In this document: positions 36,805 to 50,060 of the stretch, in pieces
Layout of the letters: every line of letters begins with the position of its first letter
How positions within the stretch are numbered: the first letter of the stretch is position 1
From: an uncultured Clostridia bacterium
GTDB lineage: Bacteria; Bacillota; Clostridia; Oscillospirales; CAG-272
Assembly: GCA_944393415.1 (NCBI GenBank)
Contig: CALYAD010000032.1
Coordinates: 2,818-66,817, forward strand
Length of the DNA: 64,000 bases
Reading direction: 5' to 3'
Notes under the pieces: generated by a model
Databases searched by the model: none
What the model saw: the letters and a program-made list of their open reading frames with translations, nothing else
What the model was told of the DNA's origin: nothing
Position numbers and translations under genes: made by a program

Positions 36805-36860
36805 AAAAACAATAATGGCTGCGGCAAAAGACAAAATTGCCGCAGCCATTATTGTTTTTT
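36805..36860. terminator. Strong bidirectional intrinsic terminator (17-bp stem)
   Basis: AATAATGGCTGCGGCAA (36811-36827) pairs with TTGCCGCAGCCATTATT (36837-36853), flanked by A5 and T6 runs. It ends the minus-strand nitrogen operon. Confidence 0.8.
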
Positions 36861-36898: not shown

Positions 36899-37483
36899 CT
36901 ATGAGTAAGTTTTTATAATTTCCTCAGCGATCTCTCGCTTTGAAACGCAGCGATCCATCGCCTGCTTTTCTATATACCGGTGAGAGTCAGGCTCCGTCAT
37001 TTTCAAATGCTCGATGAGTATCCATTTTGCCCGGTTGACTATGCGGATTTCCTGCATCTTTTCTTCCGTGGACATGGACTTTTTTTCGAACTTTTTCAGT
37101 CTCTCATGCGTTGAGATCATCCAGTCAAGCGCGTGAGAAAAGACGGTTTTTGACGTTGGTCTGGGAAGAACAAAAACCCCGTGCTCAGAGACCTTATCGT
37201 ATGTGGCTGAATAAAGCTCGGCTCGGACTAACAGCAGGGCGGCGGTTGTTTTTATCCCGCACAGATCGATAGCGAAACGGATACCGGTATCGTCGGGAAG
37301 GGGAGAGTTTATTATCACTAAATCGTATGATCTCTCCAAAACAGCTCTTTTTGCCGAGCTTATACTGCTTTCATACCTTACCGGAGAGAATTTCAGGTCA
37401 GGAAGCAGAGCCTGAAGAGATGAATTAAAAACGTCGGAAGAGGATACGGCAAGGACGCTGTAGGCATGTTCCTGTAAGCTCAC
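36899..37483 (-). CDS. ANTAR-domain RNA-binding antiterminator with a degenerate (pseudo-)receiver domain
   Basis: C-terminal ANTAR: IVNRAKWILIEHLKMTEPDSHRYIEKQAMDRCVSKREIAEEII. The N-terminal receiver-like fold has substitutions at its key positions: VSSSD replaces the DD pair, DLVIINSPLPD has Asn at the phospho-acceptor position, and LPRP replaces the KP lysine. Confidence 0.85.
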   Translation of the reverse strand: MSLQEHAYSVLAVSSSDVFNSSLQALLPDLKFSPVRYESSISSAKRAVLERSYDLVIINSPLPDDTGIRFAIDLCGIKTTAALLLVRAELYSATYDKVSEHGVFVLPRPTSKTVFSHALDWMISTHERLKKFEKKSMSTEEKMQEIRIVNRAKWILIEHLKMTEPDSHRYIEKQAMDRCVSKREIAEEIIKTYS

Positions 37484-37520: not shown

Positions 37521-38738
37521 TCAGTTGAGTTTTTTGCCGTATAATTCAATGATCCTCTCCGGGATATAAGCCCGAACGAACTCACTCTTTCGCATTTCAA
37601 GGATCGCCTCGTCAAGGGAGGCGGGTAATTTACCGAACCCTTTAAGCAGCTCTTCACTTGCCTTAAAAAGATTTATGTCGGCGGCGGGCGGAGGAGTTAA
37701 TTTGTTTTTTATTCCGTATAGACCTGCGTAAATCAGCAGAGAGAACGCCAGATACGGATTTGCGGTCGGATCCGGTGAGCGAAGCTCCGCGCGGGGACGG
37801 TCACAGACTGACGCCGGTACTCTCACAAGCTGCGAGCGGTTTTCAGCGGACCAGGAAATGTATGCCGGAGCTTTGTTTATGCCTAAGCGTCTGTAGGAAT
37901 TCTCTCTCGGATTAAAAAATACGGTCATATCGGTAATAAAATGAAGCGTTCCGGCAATTATGTTCGGGAGAAGATCGTCTCCCGACTTGTTTTGGGCGGA
38001 AATATTAATATGAAAACCGTTTCCCGGTCTGTCTTTGAGCGGTTTGGGAGAGAAATCAGCCCACAACCCGTTTCTTCCCGCAACGGTTTTTACGACCGTA
38101 TTAAACGTCATGGCGTTATCCGCGGCGGAGAGAGCGTCGGAATAGCGGAAATCTATCTCGTTCTGACCGGGACCCTCCTCATGATGAGAGCTTTCCGGCC
38201 GTATTCCCATTTGCTCAAGCGTCAGACATATCTCGCGGCGGACGTTTTCGCCCTTGTCGTCCGGCGCGATATCCATATATCCCGCCTCGTCGTATGGCGT
38301 ATTGGTTTTTTCCCCAAGCTCGTTTAGTTTAAACAGGTAGAATTCAAGCTCGGCGCCGAAATAAAAGTCTATACCTTCTTTTTTTGCCTCAGAAACCGCT
38401 TTTATCAGAATACTTCTGGTGTCGCATTCAAATGTTCTTCCGTCGGGGTAAGTGATGCCGCAGAACATTCGGACCACACGTCCATGCTCGGGACGCCACG
38501 GAAGAACGGTAAGCGTGGAGGGATCCGGATGGAGCAGAAGATCGGAGTGGGTTTCGTCTCCGAAGCCTCGGATAGCGGAAGCGTCAAACGCTATTCCATC
38601 CGAAAACGCCCTCTTAAGCTCGCCCGGCATTATGGAAATGTTTTTTTGCTTGCCGTAAATGTCGCAGAAGGCAAGACGGATAAACTTGACGTCCTCTTCC
38701 TTTACGTACTGAAGGACCTCCTCGGCAGTATACTTCAT
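37521..38738 (-). CDS. glnA: Glutamine synthetase, short type I-like
   Basis: Beta-grasp N-terminus (VKFIRLAFCDIYGKQKNISI), the catalytic FGAELEFYLF, and NGFHINIS / SWSAENRSQLVRVP motifs. Confidence 0.85.
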   Translation of the reverse strand: MKYTAEEVLQYVKEEDVKFIRLAFCDIYGKQKNISIMPGELKRAFSDGIAFDASAIRGFGDETHSDLLLHPDPSTLTVLPWRPEHGRVVRMFCGITYPDGRTFECDTRSILIKAVSEAKKEGIDFYFGAELEFYLFKLNELGEKTNTPYDEAGYMDIAPDDKGENVRREICLTLEQMGIRPESSHHEEGPGQNEIDFRYSDALSAADNAMTFNTVVKTVAGRNGLWADFSPKPLKDRPGNGFHINISAQNKSGDDLLPNIIAGTLHFITDMTVFFNPRENSYRRLGINKAPAYISWSAENRSQLVRVPASVCDRPRAELRSPDPTANPYLAFSLLIYAGLYGIKNKLTPPPAADINLFKASEELLKGFGKLPASLDEAILEMRKSEFVRAYIPERIIELYGKKLN

Positions 38739-38790: not shown

Positions 38791-39513
38791 TCAGTTTGCC
38801 ACGTACATTTGCTTGTATGGATTTCTGCTGTCCGGAGAAACGACGGTAAAGGGGAAATCCAAAATTTTATTTTTATCATATCCGAAGAGCAGACAGTATT
38901 CGGATATGTATTCGGAAATATGCTTTATGTCCTCGGGTTCTGCGTGTCTGGCGTGAACCTGACTTGGAAATCTGATATCCCTGCAGTCAGAGCGGAGATA
39001 CATTTTTCCGCCGTGCATTCCGGTGCAGGGAAAGTTGCTGACGATAGGCTTGTCGTGTGAATTAAGACCGAGAACCACGATTATCCCGCCTGCCTGGTAT
39101 TCACCTAAAAAGCTGCCCGCCGTTCCGCCGATGACTAAGACGGGGATCTTTTCCCTGTATTCTTTCATATGTATACCGGCGCGGTAGCCGGCGTTGCCTT
39201 TTACGTATATTCTTCCGCCGCGCATGGCGTATCCGGCGGCATCGCCGATATTTCCGTCAACTATTATACAGCCGTCGTTCATGGTATCGCCGACGGCGTC
39301 CTGGGCGTTTCCTTTGACTCTCAGCTCGGCTCCGTTGAGGTAAGCGCCGAGGGCGTTTCCGGGAGTACCCTCTATAAAAATATTTCTTTTCCCCATACCG
39401 GCGGCGATAAAGCGTTGTCCGAGACAACCGGTGATCTGACAGTCCCCCTCGGTATTTCTGAGCGCCTTGTTTAATTCGGCAAAATCAAGATTTTTCGCGT
39501 CAATACAATTCAT
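38791..39513 (-). CDS. Glutamate synthase GXGXG-domain subunit (GltB3-like)
   Basis: Repeated beta-helix GxxGxxxG units (GTPGNALGAYLNGAELRVKGNAQDAVGDTMNDGCIIVDGNIGDAAGYAMRGGRIYVKGNAGYRAG). Confidence 0.85.
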   Translation of the reverse strand: MNCIDAKNLDFAELNKALRNTEGDCQITGCLGQRFIAAGMGKRNIFIEGTPGNALGAYLNGAELRVKGNAQDAVGDTMNDGCIIVDGNIGDAAGYAMRGGRIYVKGNAGYRAGIHMKEYREKIPVLVIGGTAGSFLGEYQAGGIIVVLGLNSHDKPIVSNFPCTGMHGGKMYLRSDCRDIRFPSQVHARHAEPEDIKHISEYISEYCLLFGYDKNKILDFPFTVVSPDSRNPYKQMYVAN

Positions 39514-40760
39514 TATACCACACCTCCCAGCTTTTTTCTACGGGTATTTTGTGAATACGCGTATAAAGTCGGATATTTTTTCAAAAGCTCAAAATCAACG
39601 GTATCGAGCGGGATTCTTTCTCGGATAAGCGCCGTATAAATTCCCGCTCTCTCTACATCGCCTATCATTATATATCCTGTAAGTACGCCGTTTTTTGTAA
39701 AGAGGCGCTTAAGCGTCCCGTTACCTTTTTCCTCGTACATTTTTCCGCCTTCCTCTTCGCCGAAATAGCTCCCGGCTGTGATCGCGTGCAAGCCGAAGAA
39801 GCCGATTGAGTTCATGGGTATAGCCTTGTCAAATTTTGCTTGGCCTCCTGCCATATTGACGCCTGCGCAATAGCCCTGCATATATGCGTTCGGTAGAATG
39901 GCGAGCACACGTTTCCCGCCGAGCGAGATATCCTCGCCCTCCGTGCAGTCTCCCGCTGCATAAACGTTCTTAACGGAGGTCCGCATTTTTTCGTTAACAA
40001 TGATTCCTCTGTTTACCTCTCCTCCGATATCCTTTACAAGAGCGGTGTTGGCGCGTACTCCTACTACCATGACAAGGACGTCAAATTCCACACAGGCGCC
40101 GCTTTTCATGATGGCTCTGCTTCCGATGAATTCGGCGGCGGTATCACCGAGCATAAAGCTGATACCGTTTTCCTCAAGCCGCGCCTGCATTATCTTTGCG
40201 CAATCATCGTCCAGAATACTTGATAGGACTCTTGCGGCAAGGTCGCATACCGTTATATCCTTTACCCGGCCGCAAATTCCCTCGGCGCATTTAAGTCCGA
40301 TCAGTCCCGCGCCTATAATGAGAACGCGGGTATTCCTGTCAATAACCTTTTCAAGCTCCAGGGAATCGTCAAGCGTAATAAAGGTGAATTTGTTTTTTAC
40401 CGTTTCAAGCCCCTTTATCGGAGGAATAAAAGGAGAGGAGCCGGAGGCGACGCAGACCGAGGTAAAGGGAATCTTGCAGCCGTCGTTTAGGGCTACGTTT
40501 TTTGTTTCAGGATCGATCCCGACCGCTTTTTTTCCATAAATTACTTTACAGCCGTTTGAGTCGTAGAAATCGGTCTTTCGGTAATTCATCTTCGCAAGCT
40601 CTGTTTTCCCCTGAAGATAGTAAGAGATCAGGGGACGGCAGTACACGGGATGGTTTTCTTCTGAGACGACGGTTACGGCCGAGCTTTTATCAACGCTTCG
40701 GATGCCCTCGATGCAGCCGGCCGCGGCGACGCCGTTTCCGATTATAACATAATCAGCCAT
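39513..40760 (-). CDS. FAD/NAD(P)-dependent pyridine-nucleotide oxidoreductase (probable electron-input subunit)
   Basis: Two Rossmann GxGxxG motifs (IIGNGVAAAG; IIGAGLIGLKCAE) and a late AAGDC motif. ATG at 40760 follows AGAAAGGAATGGTCAT. Confidence 0.8.
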   Translation of the reverse strand: MADYVIIGNGVAAAGCIEGIRSVDKSSAVTVVSEENHPVYCRPLISYYLQGKTELAKMNYRKTDFYDSNGCKVIYGKKAVGIDPETKNVALNDGCKIPFTSVCVASGSSPFIPPIKGLETVKNKFTFITLDDSLELEKVIDRNTRVLIIGAGLIGLKCAEGICGRVKDITVCDLAARVLSSILDDDCAKIMQARLEENGISFMLGDTAAEFIGSRAIMKSGACVEFDVLVMVVGVRANTALVKDIGGEVNRGIIVNEKMRTSVKNVYAAGDCTEGEDISLGGKRVLAILPNAYMQGYCAGVNMAGGQAKFDKAIPMNSIGFFGLHAITAGSYFGEEEGGKMYEEKGNGTLKRLFTKNGVLTGYIMIGDVERAGIYTALIRERIPLDTVDFELLKKYPTLYAYSQNTRRKKLGGVV

Positions 40761-40925
40761 TGTTATGACCATTCCTTTCTTTGCCGTATAACGGCAGTCA
40801 TTTTTATAGAACTATCAAAAACTTTTCTTTAGCGAGATACGATGCCTTCAGGCATATTGAACTGTTGTGAGGACTTTTTTCGGGGTGTCTGAGAAGACTC
40901 CGAAATTCCGAGACATAGCCGCGGT

Positions 40926-41357
40926 TTACTCTCTTTCCTCATACACTATGGCTTTGTTGGGACAGCCCTTCACGCAGGCAGGTTCGCCGCAGGAATTTTG
41001 CAGGCAAAGCTCGCATTTCTGCATTACGCCGTCCTCTCCGGTAGCTAACGCACCGAACGGACACACCATAATACAGGTCAGACACCCAACGCACCTATCA
41101 CGGTCTATATGGATAACCCCGTCCTTTGTAAAGAGCGCCCCGGCGATACAGCTTTTGACACAAATCGGGTCTGAGCAGTGGCGGCAGGATACCGCGTAGG
41201 AAATTCTGTCGTCGCCTTCTATATGTATTCTCGGGTAAATTTGTTTACCCTTAAGCGCCGCTGCCATATCCTTAAGTCCGGAATTAGCGAAAGCGCAGTT
41301 ATATTCGCATAGGTGACATCCGAGACACCATTTTTCATTGACAAATACCCGTTTCAT
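40926..41357 (-). CDS. 4Fe-4S dicluster ferredoxin-domain protein
   Basis: CLGCHLCEYNC, CRHCSDPICVKSC, CVGCLTCIMVCP and CELC...C cysteine clusters. ATG at 41357 follows GGGGGA. Confidence 0.8.
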   Translation of the reverse strand: MKRVFVNEKWCLGCHLCEYNCAFANSGLKDMAAALKGKQIYPRIHIEGDDRISYAVSCRHCSDPICVKSCIAGALFTKDGVIHIDRDRCVGCLTCIMVCPFGALATGEDGVMQKCELCLQNSCGEPACVKGCPNKAIVYEERE

Positions 41358-41480
41358 ATCAATCCCCCATGCTGCCTTCAGGCAGCTCAAACAGATATAA
41401 AAATTTTTGTGTTTCGCACTTGCGAAAAATTCAAGCGTGAAAACATCTGCGTTCCGACATTATGTATTCAAGCCGGCGTT

Positions 41481-42986
41481 TTACTCTCCGGCGTGAGAGA
41501 TGCCGAGTATTTCAAGCTCCTTTGAAGTAAGTCCTACGCCGCGGAGCATCAGACGATTGCCGCGCAGAGCTTCTATGGAATTTATTCCCATGCCTCCCAT
41601 CATCTCCTTGATCTCATGCTTCCATGCGTTCATAAGATTGACAAGCCGCGCGCTTCCTATATCCGGATTCAGTCTTTTGACAAGCTCGGGGCGTTGGGTT
41701 GCTATTCCCCAGTTGCATTTACCGCTTTGGCAGGTGCGGCAGAGATGACATCCGAGAGCCAGCAGGGCCGCCGTAGCCACATAACACGCGTCGGCGCCGA
41801 GAGCGATCGCCTTGACCACGTCGGAGGCTGAGCGGATGCTTCCGCCTACGACAAGGGAAACGCTGTTGCGTATACCTTCGTCGCGCAGACGCTGATCCAC
41901 GGCGGCGAGAGCAAGCTCTATCGGGATACCAACGTTGTCTCGGATCCTGGTAGGTGCCGCACCAGTACCGCCGCGGAAGCCGTCAATAGCGATTATATCC
42001 GCGCCGCTTCGGGCTATTCCGCTGGCGATAGCGGCGATGTTGTGGACCGCCGCTACCTTTACGATAACGGGCTTTTTATACTCTGTAGCCTCCTTGAGAG
42101 AATAAACGAGCTGGCGGAGATCCTCAATCGAATAGATATCGTGGTGCGGGGCGGGAGAAATCGCGTCAGAGCCTTCCGGTATCATACGGGTTCGCGACAC
42201 ATCTCCGACTATTTTAGTTCCGGGAAGATGTCCGCCGATTCCCGGCTTTGCGCCCTGTCCCATTTTTATCTCAACGGCGGCGCCCGCCATAAGATAGTCC
42301 TCGTAAACGCCGAAGCGTCCGGAGGCTACCTGAACAATGGTATTTTTACCATAGCGGTAAAAGTCTTCATGAAGGCCGCCCTCACCGGTGTTATAAAAAA
42401 TACCGGTTTCCGTTGCCGCCCTTGCAAGACTTTCGTGGGCGTTATAGCTGATCGAACCGTAGCTCATAGCGGAGAACATAACGGGCATCGCAAGCTCAAG
42501 CTGAGGGGGAAGCCCGCATTTCAGTTTACCTTTCTCATCTCTCTGAACCTTATCGGGTTTTTTCCCAAGAAACACCTTGGTTTCCATCGGCTCGCGCAGA
42601 GGGTCGATGGGTGGGTTTGTGACCTGAGAGGCGTTTATAAGAATCTTATCCCAATATACGGGCAGCGGATTGGGATTTCCCATTGAGGATAGGAGAACGC
42701 CTCCGCTGTTTGCCTGCTTGTAGATCTCGTTTATCGTGCTGCTATGCCAGTTGGCGTTCTCGCGGAGCGTGCAGTTGCTTTTGACTATTTTCAGCGCTCT
42801 TGTCGGACAGAGAGATACACATCTCTGGCAGTTGACGCATTTGCTTTCGTCGCTTTGCATAAGCTTACGGTCTTCGTCATATGTGTGTACCTCGTTTGCG
42901 CATTGCCTTTCACATACGCGGCAGGCGATGCACCTGCCGTCATTTCTGACGACCTCAAATTCCGGATATATGAAATCAACGCTCAT
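41481..42986 (-). CDS. Glutamate synthase FMN-binding subunit (GltB2-like) with an N-terminal 2x[4Fe-4S] domain
   Basis: CIACRVCERQC / CVNCQRCVSLCP, then the GltS FMN core (MSYGSISYNAHESLA...GEGG...KMGQGAKPGIGGHLPG...ISPAPHHDIYSIEDL...DGFRGGTGAAP). The start overlaps the upstream stop (TGATG). Confidence 0.88.
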   Translation of the reverse strand: MSVDFIYPEFEVVRNDGRCIACRVCERQCANEVHTYDEDRKLMQSDESKCVNCQRCVSLCPTRALKIVKSNCTLRENANWHSSTINEIYKQANSGGVLLSSMGNPNPLPVYWDKILINASQVTNPPIDPLREPMETKVFLGKKPDKVQRDEKGKLKCGLPPQLELAMPVMFSAMSYGSISYNAHESLARAATETGIFYNTGEGGLHEDFYRYGKNTIVQVASGRFGVYEDYLMAGAAVEIKMGQGAKPGIGGHLPGTKIVGDVSRTRMIPEGSDAISPAPHHDIYSIEDLRQLVYSLKEATEYKKPVIVKVAAVHNIAAIASGIARSGADIIAIDGFRGGTGAAPTRIRDNVGIPIELALAAVDQRLRDEGIRNSVSLVVGGSIRSASDVVKAIALGADACYVATAALLALGCHLCRTCQSGKCNWGIATQRPELVKRLNPDIGSARLVNLMNAWKHEIKEMMGGMGINSIEALRGNRLMLRGVGLTSKELEILGISHAGE

Positions 42987-44080
42987 CAGAAACACCCCTC
43001 CCTTACATTTATTATAACAGGCTCTCCGCCGGCGGGAGCCCAAACGTTTTCCGCGTTCGGTTCCATTGCGCGGATCGACGCTTCTTCGCTCGCTATATAT
43101 ACCTTATTATCTTTTTCTCCGACGACCATCGAACGCAGCTTAAGACGGTCGTTTAACGCCATAAGTCCGCCGGTAAAGCCGAGAATTATGGAGAAGGGAC
43201 CGGTTACAAGCAGGCTCGGAAACATGGTGCGCAGATAAATATGCTTTTCTTTATCCTCAAGGTCGGTTTTGTTTTCTATTGTACTCCAGAAGGGCGCCGC
43301 GATCACGCTTGCCGCTTCGCCGAGCGTCAGTCCCTGAACACGTACAAGATAATCGATAATGTAAGTAATGACCTCAGTATCGGTCTGGAGATTACATTTA
43401 TAACCGAACATTTCTATGTATCTTCTGTTTGCGTCATAGGAAGATATCTCTCCGTTGTGGACTATGGAATTATCGAGCAGGGTAAACGGATGCGCCCCTC
43501 CCCACCAACCAGGCGTATTGGTCGGGTATCTGCCGTGAGCCGTCCAGCAATAGCCTTCGTATTCATCTAATCTGTAAAACTCTCCGACATCCTCCGGGAA
43601 GCCGACCGCTTTAAAAGTTCCCATGTTTTTCCCGCTGGAAAAAACATACGCGCCGGGAATCTCGGTATTTATTTTCATAACCGTTCTGACTACAAATTCC
43701 TTTTCATCCAGCTGCATGGACGCAAGAACGGATTTCAGCGGCGTTACAAAATATCTCCATATTATAGGCTCGTCAGTGATAGCCGGCAGCTTCCTTGTGG
43801 GTATTATCTCCGACTTCACAAGCTCGAATCTTTCCTTTAAGAATTCCTCGCAGCTTTTTCTTGTGGCTCGCTGGTCGAAGAAAAAATGTAACGCGTATAA
43901 ATCCTTGTATTCAGGATAGATGCCATACGCGGCAAAGCCGCCTCCGAGACCGTTGGAGCGGTCGTGCATAGGCTTCATCGCGTCGATTATTTGCCTGCCG
44001 GATATTCTTTCGCCGTCCCTGGCGATCACGGCGGCGATCGCGCATCCGGACGGAATACGTATCTGACCTTCTTTCAACAT
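42986..44080 (-). CDS. Class II (Ntn) glutamine amidotransferase subunit of glutamate synthase (GltB1-like)
   Basis: A pro-peptide then the catalytic Cys (MLKEGQIRIPSGCAIAAV), with HGRYPTNTPGWWGGAHPF and VHNGEISSY motifs. Start reassigned to 44080, because codons 1-29 of ORF 42986..44167 coincide with a leader hairpin and terminator. Confidence 0.8.
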   Translation of the reverse strand: MLKEGQIRIPSGCAIAAVIARDGERISGRQIIDAMKPMHDRSNGLGGGFAAYGIYPEYKDLYALHFFFDQRATRKSCEEFLKERFELVKSEIIPTRKLPAITDEPIIWRYFVTPLKSVLASMQLDEKEFVVRTVMKINTEIPGAYVFSSGKNMGTFKAVGFPEDVGEFYRLDEYEGYCWTAHGRYPTNTPGWWGGAHPFTLLDNSIVHNGEISSYDANRRYIEMFGYKCNLQTDTEVITYIIDYLVRVQGLTLGEAASVIAAPFWSTIENKTDLEDKEKHIYLRTMFPSLLVTGPFSIILGFTGGLMALNDRLKLRSMVVGEKDNKVYIASEEASIRAMEPNAENVWAPAGGEPVIINVREGCF

Positions 44081-44098
44081 ACTGATTACCAAGCCTTT

Positions 44099-44167
44099 CG
44101 TAAAATAAAAAGGAAAGGCGCTCACAGCCGGCAGCACTTGCCGTAACTGATGAACGCCTTTGCTCAT
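44099..44167 (-). promoter_or_regulatory. 5' leader of the GOGAT-glnA-ANTAR operon: AAAGGC-hexaloop hairpin overlapping an intrinsic terminator
   Basis: RNA: AUGAGC[AAAGGC]GUUCAU (44167-44150). Terminator: AAAGGCGUUCA (44161-44151) pairs with UGAGCGCCUUU (44124-44114), 11 bp, followed by CCUUUUUAUUUU. Confidence 0.6.
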
Positions 44168-44175
44168 TTAAGATT

Positions 44176-44204
44176 ATTATACCACGTTAAGCGCGGTTTG
44201 TCAA
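44176..44204 (-). promoter_or_regulatory. Consensus sigma-A promoter of the GOGAT operon
   Basis: On the minus strand: TTGACA (44204-44199), 17 nt, TATAAT (44181-44176). Confidence 0.75.
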
Positions 44205-44264
44205 CCTGTTTTGAAGAAAAAGCTCAGGCTTTGCAATTTTTTTCAAAAAAAATTGAAAAAGGGG

Positions 44265-44293
44265 TTGACAAAACGGTTTTTATGGTGTATAAT
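44265..44293 (+). promoter_or_regulatory. Consensus sigma-A promoter of gdhA
   Basis: TTGACA (44265-44270), 17 nt, TATAAT (44288-44293). Confidence 0.75.
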
Positions 44294-44302
44294 ACAGCAT
44301 GT

Positions 44303-44360
44303 AAAGGCAAAGGCGTCTTTTAGGTTAACACCTATAGTCGTTTTTGCCTTTTCTTTTATT
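44303..44360 (+). promoter_or_regulatory. gdhA 5' leader: AAAGGC-hexaloop hairpin, second hexaloop hairpin, and an overlapping intrinsic terminator
   Basis: P1 AAAGGC[AAAGGC]GUCUUU (44303-44320). P2 UAGG[UUAACA]CCUA (44321-44334). Alternative 13-bp terminator: AAAGGCAAAGGCG (44303-44315) pairs with CGUUUUUGCCUUU (44339-44351), followed by UCUUUUAUUU. Confidence 0.6.
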
Positions 44361-44374
44361 TGAAATTAAACTAA

Positions 44375-45735: not shown

Positions 45736-45800
45736 TAAATAACAATGATAAAGGCAAAGGCGTCTTTAATGTTCGGCATTAGGGGCGTCTTCCTTATTTA
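45736..45800 (+). promoter_or_regulatory. Third copy of the AAAGGC-hexaloop hairpin, upstream of type III GS
   Basis: AAAGGC[AAAGGC]GUCUUU at 45750-45767, a 19-nt identity with the gdhA leader. It is followed by AAUG[UUCGG]CAUU and a 9-bp alternative stem (45757-45765 with 45783-45791), then CCUUAUUUAU. A -10-like TAAATA at 45736 keeps the same spacing as in gdhA. Confidence 0.45.
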
Positions 45801-45906
45801 TAAAAACAAAACAATAAATTTTCGGTACTTGGGTACGTACATCGGGATTATTATTTAAAAACAGCACAATTAGCCGTATAGGCGAAGGAAAGGAAGGAGC
45901 ATAATT

Positions 45907-48065: not shown

Positions 48066-49781
48066 ATGCTTATTGATACGCTATGGGTGTTTTTGGCCGC
48101 GATCCTGGTTTTCTTTATGAACCTTGGGTTCGCTTCTGTGGAAGCGGGATTTGCGAGGTCAAAAAACACTGTGAATATTCTTTCAAAAAACTTTATCGTT
48201 TTTGCCGTTTCTTCGCTTGGTTTCCTTCTTTTGGGGTGGGGGCTGATGTTCGGAGGCGACAACCCTATTATAGGCACAGAGAATTTGTGGATTTTAGGTA
48301 ATGTTGATTTATCGGCATACAACGATACATTGACCTCTAATGTCCCGTTCTGGGGTAAATTTTTCTTCCAGCTTGTATTTTGCGGGACTGCCGCTACGAT
48401 AGTATCAGGAGCGGTCGCGGAGAGAGTAAAGTACATATCATTTATCATATTTTCGTTTGTGCTCACGCTGTTTATATACCCGGTAGTAGGACACTGGATC
48501 TGGGGCGGAGGCTGGCTTGCGGACATTGGATTTATGGATTTCGCGGGAGATACCGCTGTACATTCGGTCGGCGGCTGGGCGGCGCTTGCCGGAGCTATGA
48601 TTTTAGGTCCCCGTATCGGTAAATACGATAAAAACGGAAAGCCGCGCGCGATTCCCGGGCACAACATGTCGCTGGCGGTGATCGGTCTGTTCGTTCTCTG
48701 GCTCGGATGGTTTGGTTTTAACCCTGGTTCGACCATGAGCTTTCAGAATCCGTCCGATATCATGCACATCCTGATGACCACGAATACCTCGGCGATCGCG
48801 GCTGTTTTAACCTCTACGGTTACCGCCTGGATTTTCATCGGAAAGCCCGATCTGGGTATGACAATAAACGGTTGTCTGGCAGGCCTCGTCGCGATAACCG
48901 GAGGATGCGCTTATATAAGCATTGAGATCTCATTGCTGATCGGGGCAATCGCCGGCGTTCTCGTTGTATTCGCGGTGATGTTCTTTGACCGTGTGGGAAT
49001 CGACGATCCCGTGGGAGCGACGTCAGTGCATCTCGGATGCGGGGTATTCGGAACTATCTGTGTGGGATTGTTCGCAAAGGAAGGCGTAACCACGCTCTCT
49101 ACCGCCAACGGTCTGTTTTACGGAGGCGGATTCAGGCTTCTCGGTGTGCAGCTTTTGGGAATACTGGCGGTCGGAGCGTTTGTGTTTGCCGCTTCTTCTG
49201 TAGTTTGGTTAGTTTTGAAAAAGACAGTAGGTATACGCGTTTCGGCGGAGGAAGAGATTGCCGGCTTAGATATCGGTGAGCACGGCAACCATGCGTATCC
49301 CGATTTTGTCACGGCTGTTGAAAGCATTGACTACGGTTATGAAGGAGCCGTAGCGGTTACCGGAGAGACGCCTGTCGCCGAGGCTATCCCTGTTAAAAAG
49401 CTTCCGTCCTTTGACGGCGGCGCGCCTAAATTGACCAAGATCGAGATCATATGTAAGGAAGCACGCTTCGAGGCCTTGAAAACCGCGATGATGAATATCG
49501 GTATTACCGGAATGACGGTGTCCCACGTTCTTGGATGCGGAGCTCAGAAGGGTAAGCCGGAATACTACCGCGGCGTTCAGGTAGAAGCGAATCTGCTGCC
49601 TAAGATACAGGTAGATATAGTCGTCAGCAAGGTTCCGGTGCGCGATGTTATAGAGACCGCGAAAAAGGTTCTGTATACCGGACATATAGGAGACGGAAAG
49701 ATCTTCGTTTACGATGTTGAAAATGTCGTTAAGGTACGTACCGGGGAGGAAGGCTTTGACGCGCTTCAGGATGTAGAGTAA
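48066..49781 (+). CDS. amt: Ammonium transporter fused to a C-terminal P-II (GlnB/GlnK) domain
   Basis: Amt core (DFAGDTAVHSVGGWAALAGAMILGPRIGKY; VHLGCGVFGT). A ~40-aa linker. Then a complete P-II domain (KIEIICKEARFEALKTAMMNIGITGMTVSHVLGCGAQKGKPEYYRG...GHIGDGKIFVYDVENVVKVRTGE). Confidence 0.9.
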   Translation: MLIDTLWVFLAAILVFFMNLGFASVEAGFARSKNTVNILSKNFIVFAVSSLGFLLLGWGLMFGGDNPIIGTENLWILGNVDLSAYNDTLTSNVPFWGKFFFQLVFCGTAATIVSGAVAERVKYISFIIFSFVLTLFIYPVVGHWIWGGGWLADIGFMDFAGDTAVHSVGGWAALAGAMILGPRIGKYDKNGKPRAIPGHNMSLAVIGLFVLWLGWFGFNPGSTMSFQNPSDIMHILMTTNTSAIAAVLTSTVTAWIFIGKPDLGMTINGCLAGLVAITGGCAYISIEISLLIGAIAGVLVVFAVMFFDRVGIDDPVGATSVHLGCGVFGTICVGLFAKEGVTTLSTANGLFYGGGFRLLGVQLLGILAVGAFVFAASSVVWLVLKKTVGIRVSAEEEIAGLDIGEHGNHAYPDFVTAVESIDYGYEGAVAVTGETPVAEAIPVKKLPSFDGGAPKLTKIEIICKEARFEALKTAMMNIGITGMTVSHVLGCGAQKGKPEYYRGVQVEANLLPKIQVDIVVSKVPVRDVIETAKKVLYTGHIGDGKIFVYDVENVVKVRTGEEGFDALQDVE

Positions 49782-49814
49782 AAGAAAGTCGATCTAAATA
49801 AAATAAATTAAAAG

Positions 49815-50060
49815 CGTTTGAGAAAAGAAGAGTAATGCGATCCCCCGCCTGCAGCGAGTACGGGAAGGTGGAAGCCGTATGGCGGGCTCGCGTGAAAAAC
49901 ACTTTTCGAGCCGCAAGCCGAAAGGAAGCTCCTCAGTAGGCGCGCCGTCAGGTCGCGCGTTAAGCGATACAGCCTTGTAGGAGGCGTAAAAAAGAACAAA
50001 TATAGGTGGCACCGCGAGAACAGCACTTGCCCTATAGAATGCTGAAAATACTTTGATTTT
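49815..50060 (+). promoter_or_regulatory. T-box leader, probable asparagine specifier (AAC), without an obvious terminator
   Basis: Stem I elements (AGAGUA; CAGCGAG...GGUGGAAG). Specifier GAAA-AAC-A (AAC at 49898-49900). AGUA box. GAAC...UAUAGGUGGCACCGCG (T-box at 50005-50016). Canonical antiterminator UAUAGG[UGGCACC]GCGAG...CUUGCCCUAUA. Confidence 0.7.

Follow-up and report, generated by a model that had tools for sequence, protein, structure and literature searches.

A NitR-type ANTAR regulator with an aspartate-less receiver behind glnA in an uncultured Clostridia bacterium: predicted leader targets and candidate inputs

How is a regulator with the fold of a response regulator controlled if its receiver half lacks the residues on which phosphorylation depends? 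This question is raised by a gene at positions 36899..37483 (minus strand) in a stretch of 64,000 nucleotides, referred to here as the window, from an uncultured Clostridia bacterium of the Oscillospirales (lineage CAG-272; GenBank assembly GCA_944393415.1, contig CALYAD010000032.1, positions 2,818 to 66,817). The gene is the final one of an operon for glutamate synthase (GOGAT) and glutamine synthetase (GS), and it encodes a 194-amino-acid ANTAR regulator of the NitR type with an aspartate-less receiver. A preliminary description of this DNA, made from the sequence, had already regarded the receiver half as apparently non-phosphorylatable. The best overall explanation is probably that the protein is a NitR-type antiterminator with a pseudo-receiver, and that its input is not a phosphoryl group; the leading candidate for this input, held with much less certainty, is GlnA, the glutamine synthetase encoded directly upstream. 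Coordinates are those of the window unless another contig is named.

The receiver half and its family

The pseudo-receiver comprises residues 7-112 (37148..37465, minus strand), as delimited by the AlphaFold2 model, Foldseek, profile alignments and family conservation. Its signature positions were located by profile-to-PDB alignments (HMMER) with solved receivers, and the AlphaFold2 model agrees with the assignments. The position of the acidic pair is occupied by Ser14-Ser15, which stand under VVDDEE of NtrC4 (1zit) and AEDE of Rv1626, and the phospho-acceptor position at the end of beta3 by Asn59, which stands under DLVIMD and IVLD. The Thr/Ser position at the end of beta4 is taken by Arg87, and the Lys-Pro position at the end of beta5 by Arg108-Pro109. 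The codons of Asn59 (AAC, 37307..37309, minus strand) and Arg108 (AGA, 37160-37162, minus strand) were read from the sequence. Because the regulator has neither the acidic pair that binds Mg nor the acceptor Asp nor the Thr/Ser residue, it cannot act as a classical two-component response regulator.

Misplaced gaps do not account for this state. The motif DLVIINSPLPDDTG is in register with the canonical D-x-x-x-x-D-x-x-M-P-x-x-D-G, and no re-gapping gives an Asp pocket because the register of NSPLPDDxG fits that of the canonical D-x-x-M-P-x-x-D-G. Asp54 was rejected as the acceptor, being the Asp that receivers usually have five positions ahead of it. Asp64/65 were likewise rejected since they correspond to the loop Asp before the Gly, and the strand ends of the AlphaFold2 model agree. 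The preliminary description had pointed to VSSSD at the acidic pair, to Asn in place of the acceptor Asp, to a missing Lys and to a clear ANTAR domain in the C-terminal half, and had allowed for the chance that correct gap placement would reveal an intact Asp pocket after all. Ser14-Ser15 indeed align with DD or ED, Asn59 is supported by alignment, model and codon, the ANTAR domain scores far above its Pfam cut-off (see below), and no Asp pocket emerged. The substitution of the Lys is also real, as Arg108-Pro109, but it is a conservative one in a family that mostly has Lys.

The conservation of these positions was followed in three sets of homologues. When 1.8 billion cluster representatives were searched exhaustively, 178 matches fell below 1e-30, of which the 124 full-length ones make up a diverse set, and two further locus sets hold about 80 species each (81 and 80 sequences scored at position 59). 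Among 20 close homologues, neither Asn59 nor any other residue of the NSPLPDD motif varies. In the diverse set, position 59 is Asn in 100 sequences, Asp in 10, His in four and Ser in three, and it is Asn in 71 of 81 sequences of the second set and 78 of 80 of the third. Position 14 is Ser in 100 of the 124 diverse representatives, position 15 is Ser, Ala or Gly, and the residue after Asn59 is Ser, Ala or Thr. Basic residues prevail at the two other positions, with 50 Lys and 24 Arg at position 87 and 99 Lys and 14 Arg at position 108 (n=124 for each). Even the family members with Asp59 lack the acidic pair. The second and third sets, in which the same receiver state is found, include Clostridium cuniculi, C. 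disporicum, C. celatum, C. saudiense, Romboutsia, Sedimentibacter, Acetivibrio mesophilus and a Desulfotomaculum; the labels of the distant cluster representatives name a generic ANTAR protein only.

Judged from these alignments, the altered pocket is under selection and not drifting, and the aspartate-less receiver is the family-wide state of NitR-type regulators and no local decay, a point overlooked in the preliminary description. Since the family mostly keeps Lys at position 108 (99 of 124), Arg108 is best read as a conservative, lineage-specific variant of the retained Lys, which the preliminary description had likewise passed over. The regulator is thus an ordinary member of the NitR-type family of ANTAR proteins with aspartate-less receivers, a category that is already known and will not surprise a specialist.

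The open reading frame (ORF) of the regulator begins with GTG, about 7 nt downstream of an AGGAGG Shine-Dalgarno sequence, and it is the sole ANTAR gene of the genome (2.33 Mb, 46% G+C, 96.7% complete). The nearest named homologues are found in metagenome-assembled genomes of Oscillospiraceae, Acutalibacteraceae and Faecousia. In Pfam, the ANTAR domain is matched with 59.4 bits against a cut-off of 27.3 (residues 140-190), while Response_reg reaches 17.5 bits, under its cut-off of 30.2. The AlphaFold2 model, built with 21 homologues (predicted local distance difference test score 83.6), has a complete (βα)5 CheY-like receiver fold, a long alpha5 helix and three ANTAR helices: beta1 covers residues 8-13, beta3 55-59, beta4 81-87, beta5 104-108, alpha5 112-134, and the ANTAR helices 139-160, 164-178 and 182-193. 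The top Foldseek matches are Rv1626, EutV and AmiR, followed by dozens of receiver domains at a root-mean-square deviation of 2.1-2.9 A. The three-helix ANTAR domain (residues 139-193; 36905..37069, minus strand) was defined by Pfam and by alignment to EutV (6wsh), with contact residues taken from PMC8934654. Here, the guanine-4 pocket of EutV (Lys149, Glu160, Tyr164 and Met172) corresponds to Lys153, Glu164, His168 in place of Tyr, and Met176 of the regulator.

Three leader hairpins as predicted targets

The operon of the regulator is read on the minus strand in the order amidotransferase, FMN/Fe-S subunit, ferredoxin, flavin oxidoreductase, GXGXG subunit, glnA and regulator, and it diverges from gdhA, the gene for glutamate dehydrogenase. 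The two promoters lie back to back in 44176-44293 and are both perfect sigma-70 consensus sequences, TTGACA-17-TATAAT, with 12 of 12 matches each: that of the GOGAT-glnA-ANTAR operon is at 44204..44176 (minus strand) and that of gdhA at 44265..44293 (plus strand). Since both are perfect consensus, control of the two divergent transcripts seems to be exerted wholly after initiation. Within about 10 nt past each promoter lies a hairpin in which a C-G pair closes the loop AAAGGC. In the operon leader (44099..44171, minus strand), the hairpin GAGC[AAAGGC]GUUC is itself the 5′ arm of a terminator that is followed by a U-run (fold of -32.7 kcal/mol, z -3.5). In the gdhA leader (44299..44361, plus strand), the hairpin AAGGC[AAAGGC]GUCUU overlaps the terminator in the predicted fold. 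A third leader, that of the type III glutamine synthetase gene with the gene for an ammonium transporter fused to a P-II domain (Amt-P-II) downstream, has the same hairpin over a terminator at 45746..45801 (plus strand), according to the fold (z -5.9) and a terminator scan. In all three leaders, hairpin and terminator share the 5′ arm and are mutually exclusive.

A covariance model of the hairpin, R1, matches the operon leader with 31.6 bits (44146-44171), the gdhA leader with 30.1 bits (44299-44324) and the type III glutamine synthetase leader with 31.0 bits (45746-45771). These are the only matches above 30 bits in the whole genome, all three being in the window, and the next best reaches 20.5 bits. 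The covariance model was used in place of a plain 9-mer search for the hairpin, which gave 55 genome matches, mostly in coding sequence, and was uninformative. The hairpin recurs in orthologous leaders of relatives with stems that differ yet remain complementary, such as AGGC/GUCU, GAGC/GUUC, CAGC/GCUG (Clostridium and Romboutsia) and AAGC/GCUU (Sedimentibacter). Furthermore, ANTAR sites require A at loop position 1 and G at position 4 (PMC3369931), and both are present in the AAAGGC loops of the three leaders. The three hairpins are thus likely targets of the regulator. In Rfam, no family fits the hairpin leaders at gathering or E-value thresholds, and the only family that appears is the T-box before asnB.

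There are two side observations on these leaders and genes. In the gdhA and type III glutamine synthetase leaders, the 5′ stem repeats the bases of the loop (AAAGGC AAAGGC; 44299-44324 and 45746-45771, plus strand), and an alternative register of the hairpin is therefore possible. The genome also has a second type III glutamine synthetase gene outside the window (genome contig C41:23131-23682), which appears to lie outside the regulon since no hairpin match above 21 bits is found elsewhere in the genome.

Input to the pseudo-receiver

What replaces the phosphoryl signal? The most constant neighbour of the regulator gene is glnA (37521..38738, minus strand), located 37 nt upstream, which encodes a short GSI-alpha glutamine synthetase of 405 amino acids (Pfam and NCBIfam, and the best solved relatives). 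In relatives, glnA directly precedes the regulator gene in all close loci whose DNA extends far enough, in 72 of 74 loci of the second set and in 67 of 73 of the third, and also in loci at 35-43% identity. Furthermore, the distance matrices of the regulator and GlnA are correlated (r 0.73, 32 taxa), and a partial Mantel r of 0.60 is left when three other operon proteins are controlled, a value reached by none of 999 permutations. For comparison, the partial r is 0.64 for two known glutamate-synthase subunits and 0.06 for the adjacent pair glnA-GXGXG. This mirror-tree signal fits co-evolution, but it could equally come from transfer of a two-gene cassette or from similar rates and not from contact. 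Because of the invariant adjacency and the partial mirror-tree signal, co-transcribed GSI-alpha GlnA in its feedback-inhibited state is the best-supported candidate for the partner, although the identification is tentative and has less than an even chance of being right. It is possible, if somewhat doubtful, that the pseudo-receiver is a docking module for the short GSI-alpha enzyme and that feedback-inhibited glutamine synthetase switches off the RNA-binding antiterminator.

GlnA is about 40 residues shorter than its best solved relatives, GSI-alpha glutamine synthetases of about 442-467 amino acids (4lnf, 8tfb and others), and its catalytic motifs appear to be intact. About 12 residues are missing internally after the GxGxH motif, and the C-terminus is shortened. 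The GlnA partners of the ANTAR gene in relatives are also short, with 404-410 amino acids. In a few Clostridiaceae assemblies (loci L130, L200, L222 and L244), the ANTAR gene comes directly after the GXGXG gene with no glnA between.

Other inputs have to be weighed against GlnA. The preliminary description had likened the regulator to AmiR, which is controlled by a partner protein, and had named both GlnA and the P-II domain as conceivable sensors. Partner regulation of the AmiR kind is not established here, as no binding protein of the AmiC or NasS type is adjacent and it is glnA that is conserved next to the gene. Pfam confirms the fusion of a P-II domain to an ammonium transporter (48066..49781, plus strand). 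In Bacillus subtilis, GlnK-AmtB holds TnrA, and on this model the Amt-fused P-II domain, sensing 2-oxoglutarate and ATP/ADP, would either keep the regulator bound to the membrane or set it free. It is the only bona fide P-II above threshold in a genome-wide search (a second, weak P-II-like match at genome contig C20:14033-14308 has 23 bits, under the cut-off), its gene shares the nitrogen locus and comes after a gene under predicted hairpin control, and in relatives an Amt-P-II gene often lies close to the ANTAR gene. Unlike glnA, however, these genes vary in where they stand with respect to the ANTAR gene and are often absent from the flanks examined, and the membrane tether limits the possible geometry, which makes this sensor improbable. 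A protein partner would not be needed at all if the pseudo-receiver bound a small molecule itself, such as glutamine, 2-oxoglutarate or a nucleotide second messenger. The pocket shows no decay, as Ser14, Asn59, Lys/Arg at position 108 and a basic residue at position 87 are themselves conserved, and the receiver of NasT, an ANTAR protein, is reported to bind c-di-GMP (PMC10783516); on the other hand, the loop NxPLxD[DE]xG is kept by ordinary receivers too, for structural reasons, and direct ligand binding is considered rather improbable.

It is also conceivable, though quite improbable, that the regulator is constitutively active, the pseudo-receiver being a scaffold for dimerisation only, with nitrogen control elsewhere, at the promoter, by antisense RNA or at the protein level. 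Several aspartate-less receivers are indeed constitutive dimers (PMC4395418), antisense RNA control of glnA has been reported in clostridia (PMC4676874, PMC6316151), and dosage feedback exists, as the operon of the gene carries its own target. But positive feedback without an input would lock on, the perfect sigma-70 promoters have no evident operator, and the strong conservation of the pocket argues for a role beyond a scaffold. Phosphorylation by another route, through deamidation of Asn59 to Asp or through a Ser/Thr kinase that hits the Ser14-Ser16 cluster, is highly improbable. In its favour, PMC4395418 describes a receiver domain in which an acceptor-site Asn can turn back into Asp, the residue after Asn59 is Ser, Ala or Thr, Ser14 is nearly invariant, and about eight kinase-like ATPase domains are encoded elsewhere in the genome. 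Against this route, the acidic pair is missing throughout the family, members with Asp59 included, the Thr/Ser position is basic, and no kinase is linked to the regulator gene in the more than 200 loci of relatives that were examined. The kinase ATPase domain HATPase_c has no match anywhere on the contig of the window either, in keeping with the earlier remark that the window has no histidine kinase. To the extent that sequence can show it, a kinase is thereby ruled out as the input. What is left of the probability falls to further inputs of unspecified kind.

With GlnA as the favoured input, the proposed mechanism is as follows. Its core, a non-phosphorylatable NitR-type antiterminator acting on the three AAAGGC hairpins, is held with good confidence. 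The regulator would dimerise through the long alpha5 helix, and the dimer would bind and stabilise the small AAAGGC hairpin while it is being transcribed. The bound hairpin would withhold the 5′ arm and leave the 3′ arm of the terminator without a partner, so that RNA polymerase would read through. As its own operon carries a site, the regulator would also amplify its own synthesis by positive autoregulation. The activity of the regulator would be set by a non-phosphoryl signal on the pseudo-receiver, and this is the least certain part.

Besides the ambiguity of the mirror-tree signal, several points weigh against this explanation. We infer RNA binding, antitermination and any protein partner alike. 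Five of the 11 RNA-contact residues of EutV, peripheral ones, are not conserved in the regulator. Each leader has one conserved hexaloop versus two in characterised ANTAR attenuators: no second conserved hexaloop was found in the three leaders or in relatives, the terminators have apical hairpins whose loops differ in length and sequence and show no A1/G4, and the operon leader has no room for one upstream. The EutV-RNA structure, however, has led to a redefinition of the minimal ANTAR site as a single hexaloop (PMC8934654). The stems covary, as five of the six pairs vary on both sides among relatives, in an alignment restricted to stems of at least 5 bp, and because of this selection the pairing percentage is partly built in. 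Among the more distant loci, only about one quarter have the hairpin within 3 kb. Finally, it is physiologically odd to place gdhA and the GS/GOGAT genes under one positive regulator.

The five split glutamate-synthase genes (GATase_2, FMN/Fe-S, Fer4, Pyr_redox_2 and GXGXG in Pfam; 38791..44080, minus strand) are co-transcribed upstream of glnA, and their order recurs in many relatives. The longest ORF of the first one begins at 44167 and spans the leader hairpin and the terminator (44080-44167, minus strand). Because it reads through the leader terminator, the real start of the gene is probably the ATG at 44080 (MLKEGQIRIPSGC...). After the regulator gene, the operon is closed by a hairpin with a T-run at 36811..36860 (minus strand), read from the sequence as GGCTGCGGCAA...TTGCCGCAGCC and then ATTATTGTTTTT, which is absent from the terminator scan, apparently since its loop is longer than 8 nt. 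Downstream of this terminator lies a convergent gene with a PALP domain, for a pyridoxal-phosphate-dependent enzyme. On the divergent side, gdhA is followed by the type III glutamine synthetase gene, the Amt-P-II fusion gene and then asnB behind a T-box leader (49808-50037, plus strand; 79.7 bits, E 1.2e-16). The default search missed this T-box because the score lies under the Rfam gathering score of 93.

Significance and comparison with known systems

It appears that this one regulator governs the entire primary assimilation of ammonium, with GS, GOGAT, glutamate dehydrogenase and type III GS, in many Clostridia of gut and rumen (Oscillospirales, Lachnospirales, Clostridium, Acetivibrio and others). 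The family-wide aspartate-less receiver, the lock to a short glnA and the three target hairpins narrow the search for the nitrogen signal to a partner protein or a ligand. The three hairpins form a small, fully defined predicted regulon, and the evidence points to glutamine synthetase as the missing sensor.

The closest known system is NitR. In PMC6316151 (citing Stutz 2007), NitR is presented as an ANTAR antiterminator that induces the GS/GOGAT genes on nitrogen limitation. As in the glnA-nitR-gltAB clusters of Clostridium saccharobutylicum and C. acetobutylicum, the ANTAR gene in the window comes directly after glnA and is linked to GOGAT, and orthologues from Clostridium sensu stricto carry the Asn, the Ser cluster and the adjacency to glnA. 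The regulator differs in having only about 36-39% identity to Clostridium proteins and Arg for Lys at position 108, and the GOGAT genes are upstream and of the split archaeal type here whereas they are downstream in the NitR cluster. We infer orthology to the NitR of C. saccharobutylicum from synteny and from other Clostridium species, which is a further point against the explanation given above; neither C. saccharobutylicum nor C. acetobutylicum is among the best 80 in three scans of relatives' contigs. Another comparable case is Clostridium (Acetivibrio) thermocellum, in which Clo1313_2030-2036 is a seven-gene GS-GOGAT cluster of matching layout, co-regulated as a unit (PMC4676874). Clo1313_2030, a biochemically uncharacterised receiver-ANTAR gene, likewise stands at the end of the cluster. 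The related protein of Acetivibrio mesophilus shares the Asn at the acceptor position but keeps Lys-Pro.

AmiR is the classic example of an ANTAR protein whose receiver lacks the Asp (PMC3369931, PMC3369936). Like the regulator, AmiR of Pseudomonas aeruginosa, which works with AmiC, has a non-phosphorylated pseudo-receiver and a long coiled-coil (1qo0, Foldseek E 2.6e-6), but the match in sequence is marginal (E 0.028, in the ANTAR half only). The protein partner that controls AmiR is encoded by an adjacent gene; in contrast to the AmiR and NasT systems, the neighbour here is a glutamine synthetase and not a sensor resembling periplasmic binding proteins, such as AmiC or NasS. The best solved matches are Rv1626/PdtaR of M. 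tuberculosis (1s8n, E 4.6e-10) and EutV of E. faecalis (6wsh), which share the receiver-coiled-coil-ANTAR architecture. Unlike the regulator, both retain the complete Asp pocket and are served by cognate kinases, and EutV uses dual hexaloop motifs.

Aspartate-less receivers (ALR) have already been described as a class; ANTAR proteins are enriched in them, and Asn is their second commonest substitution (PMC4395418). ALR domains such as that of RitR (Asn53) resemble the pseudo-receiver in their receiver fold, the Asn at the acceptor site and the basic residue at the Lys position. They differ in that two thirds of them keep the first acidic residue, where the regulator family has Ser. A signal from glutamine synthetase to a regulator also has a known counterpart. 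In Bacillus subtilis, GSI-alpha glutamine synthetase signals to TnrA and GlnR, the MerR-type DNA-binding nitrogen regulators. GlnA of the window belongs to the same GS subclass, whereas TnrA and GlnR are MerR-type DNA binders and the interaction with the ANTAR regulator is hypothesised. If it is true, gut and environmental Clostridia would have a nitrogen circuit that is sensed by GS and acts at the level of RNA, where Bacilli use the GS-TnrA/GlnR circuit, which acts on DNA.

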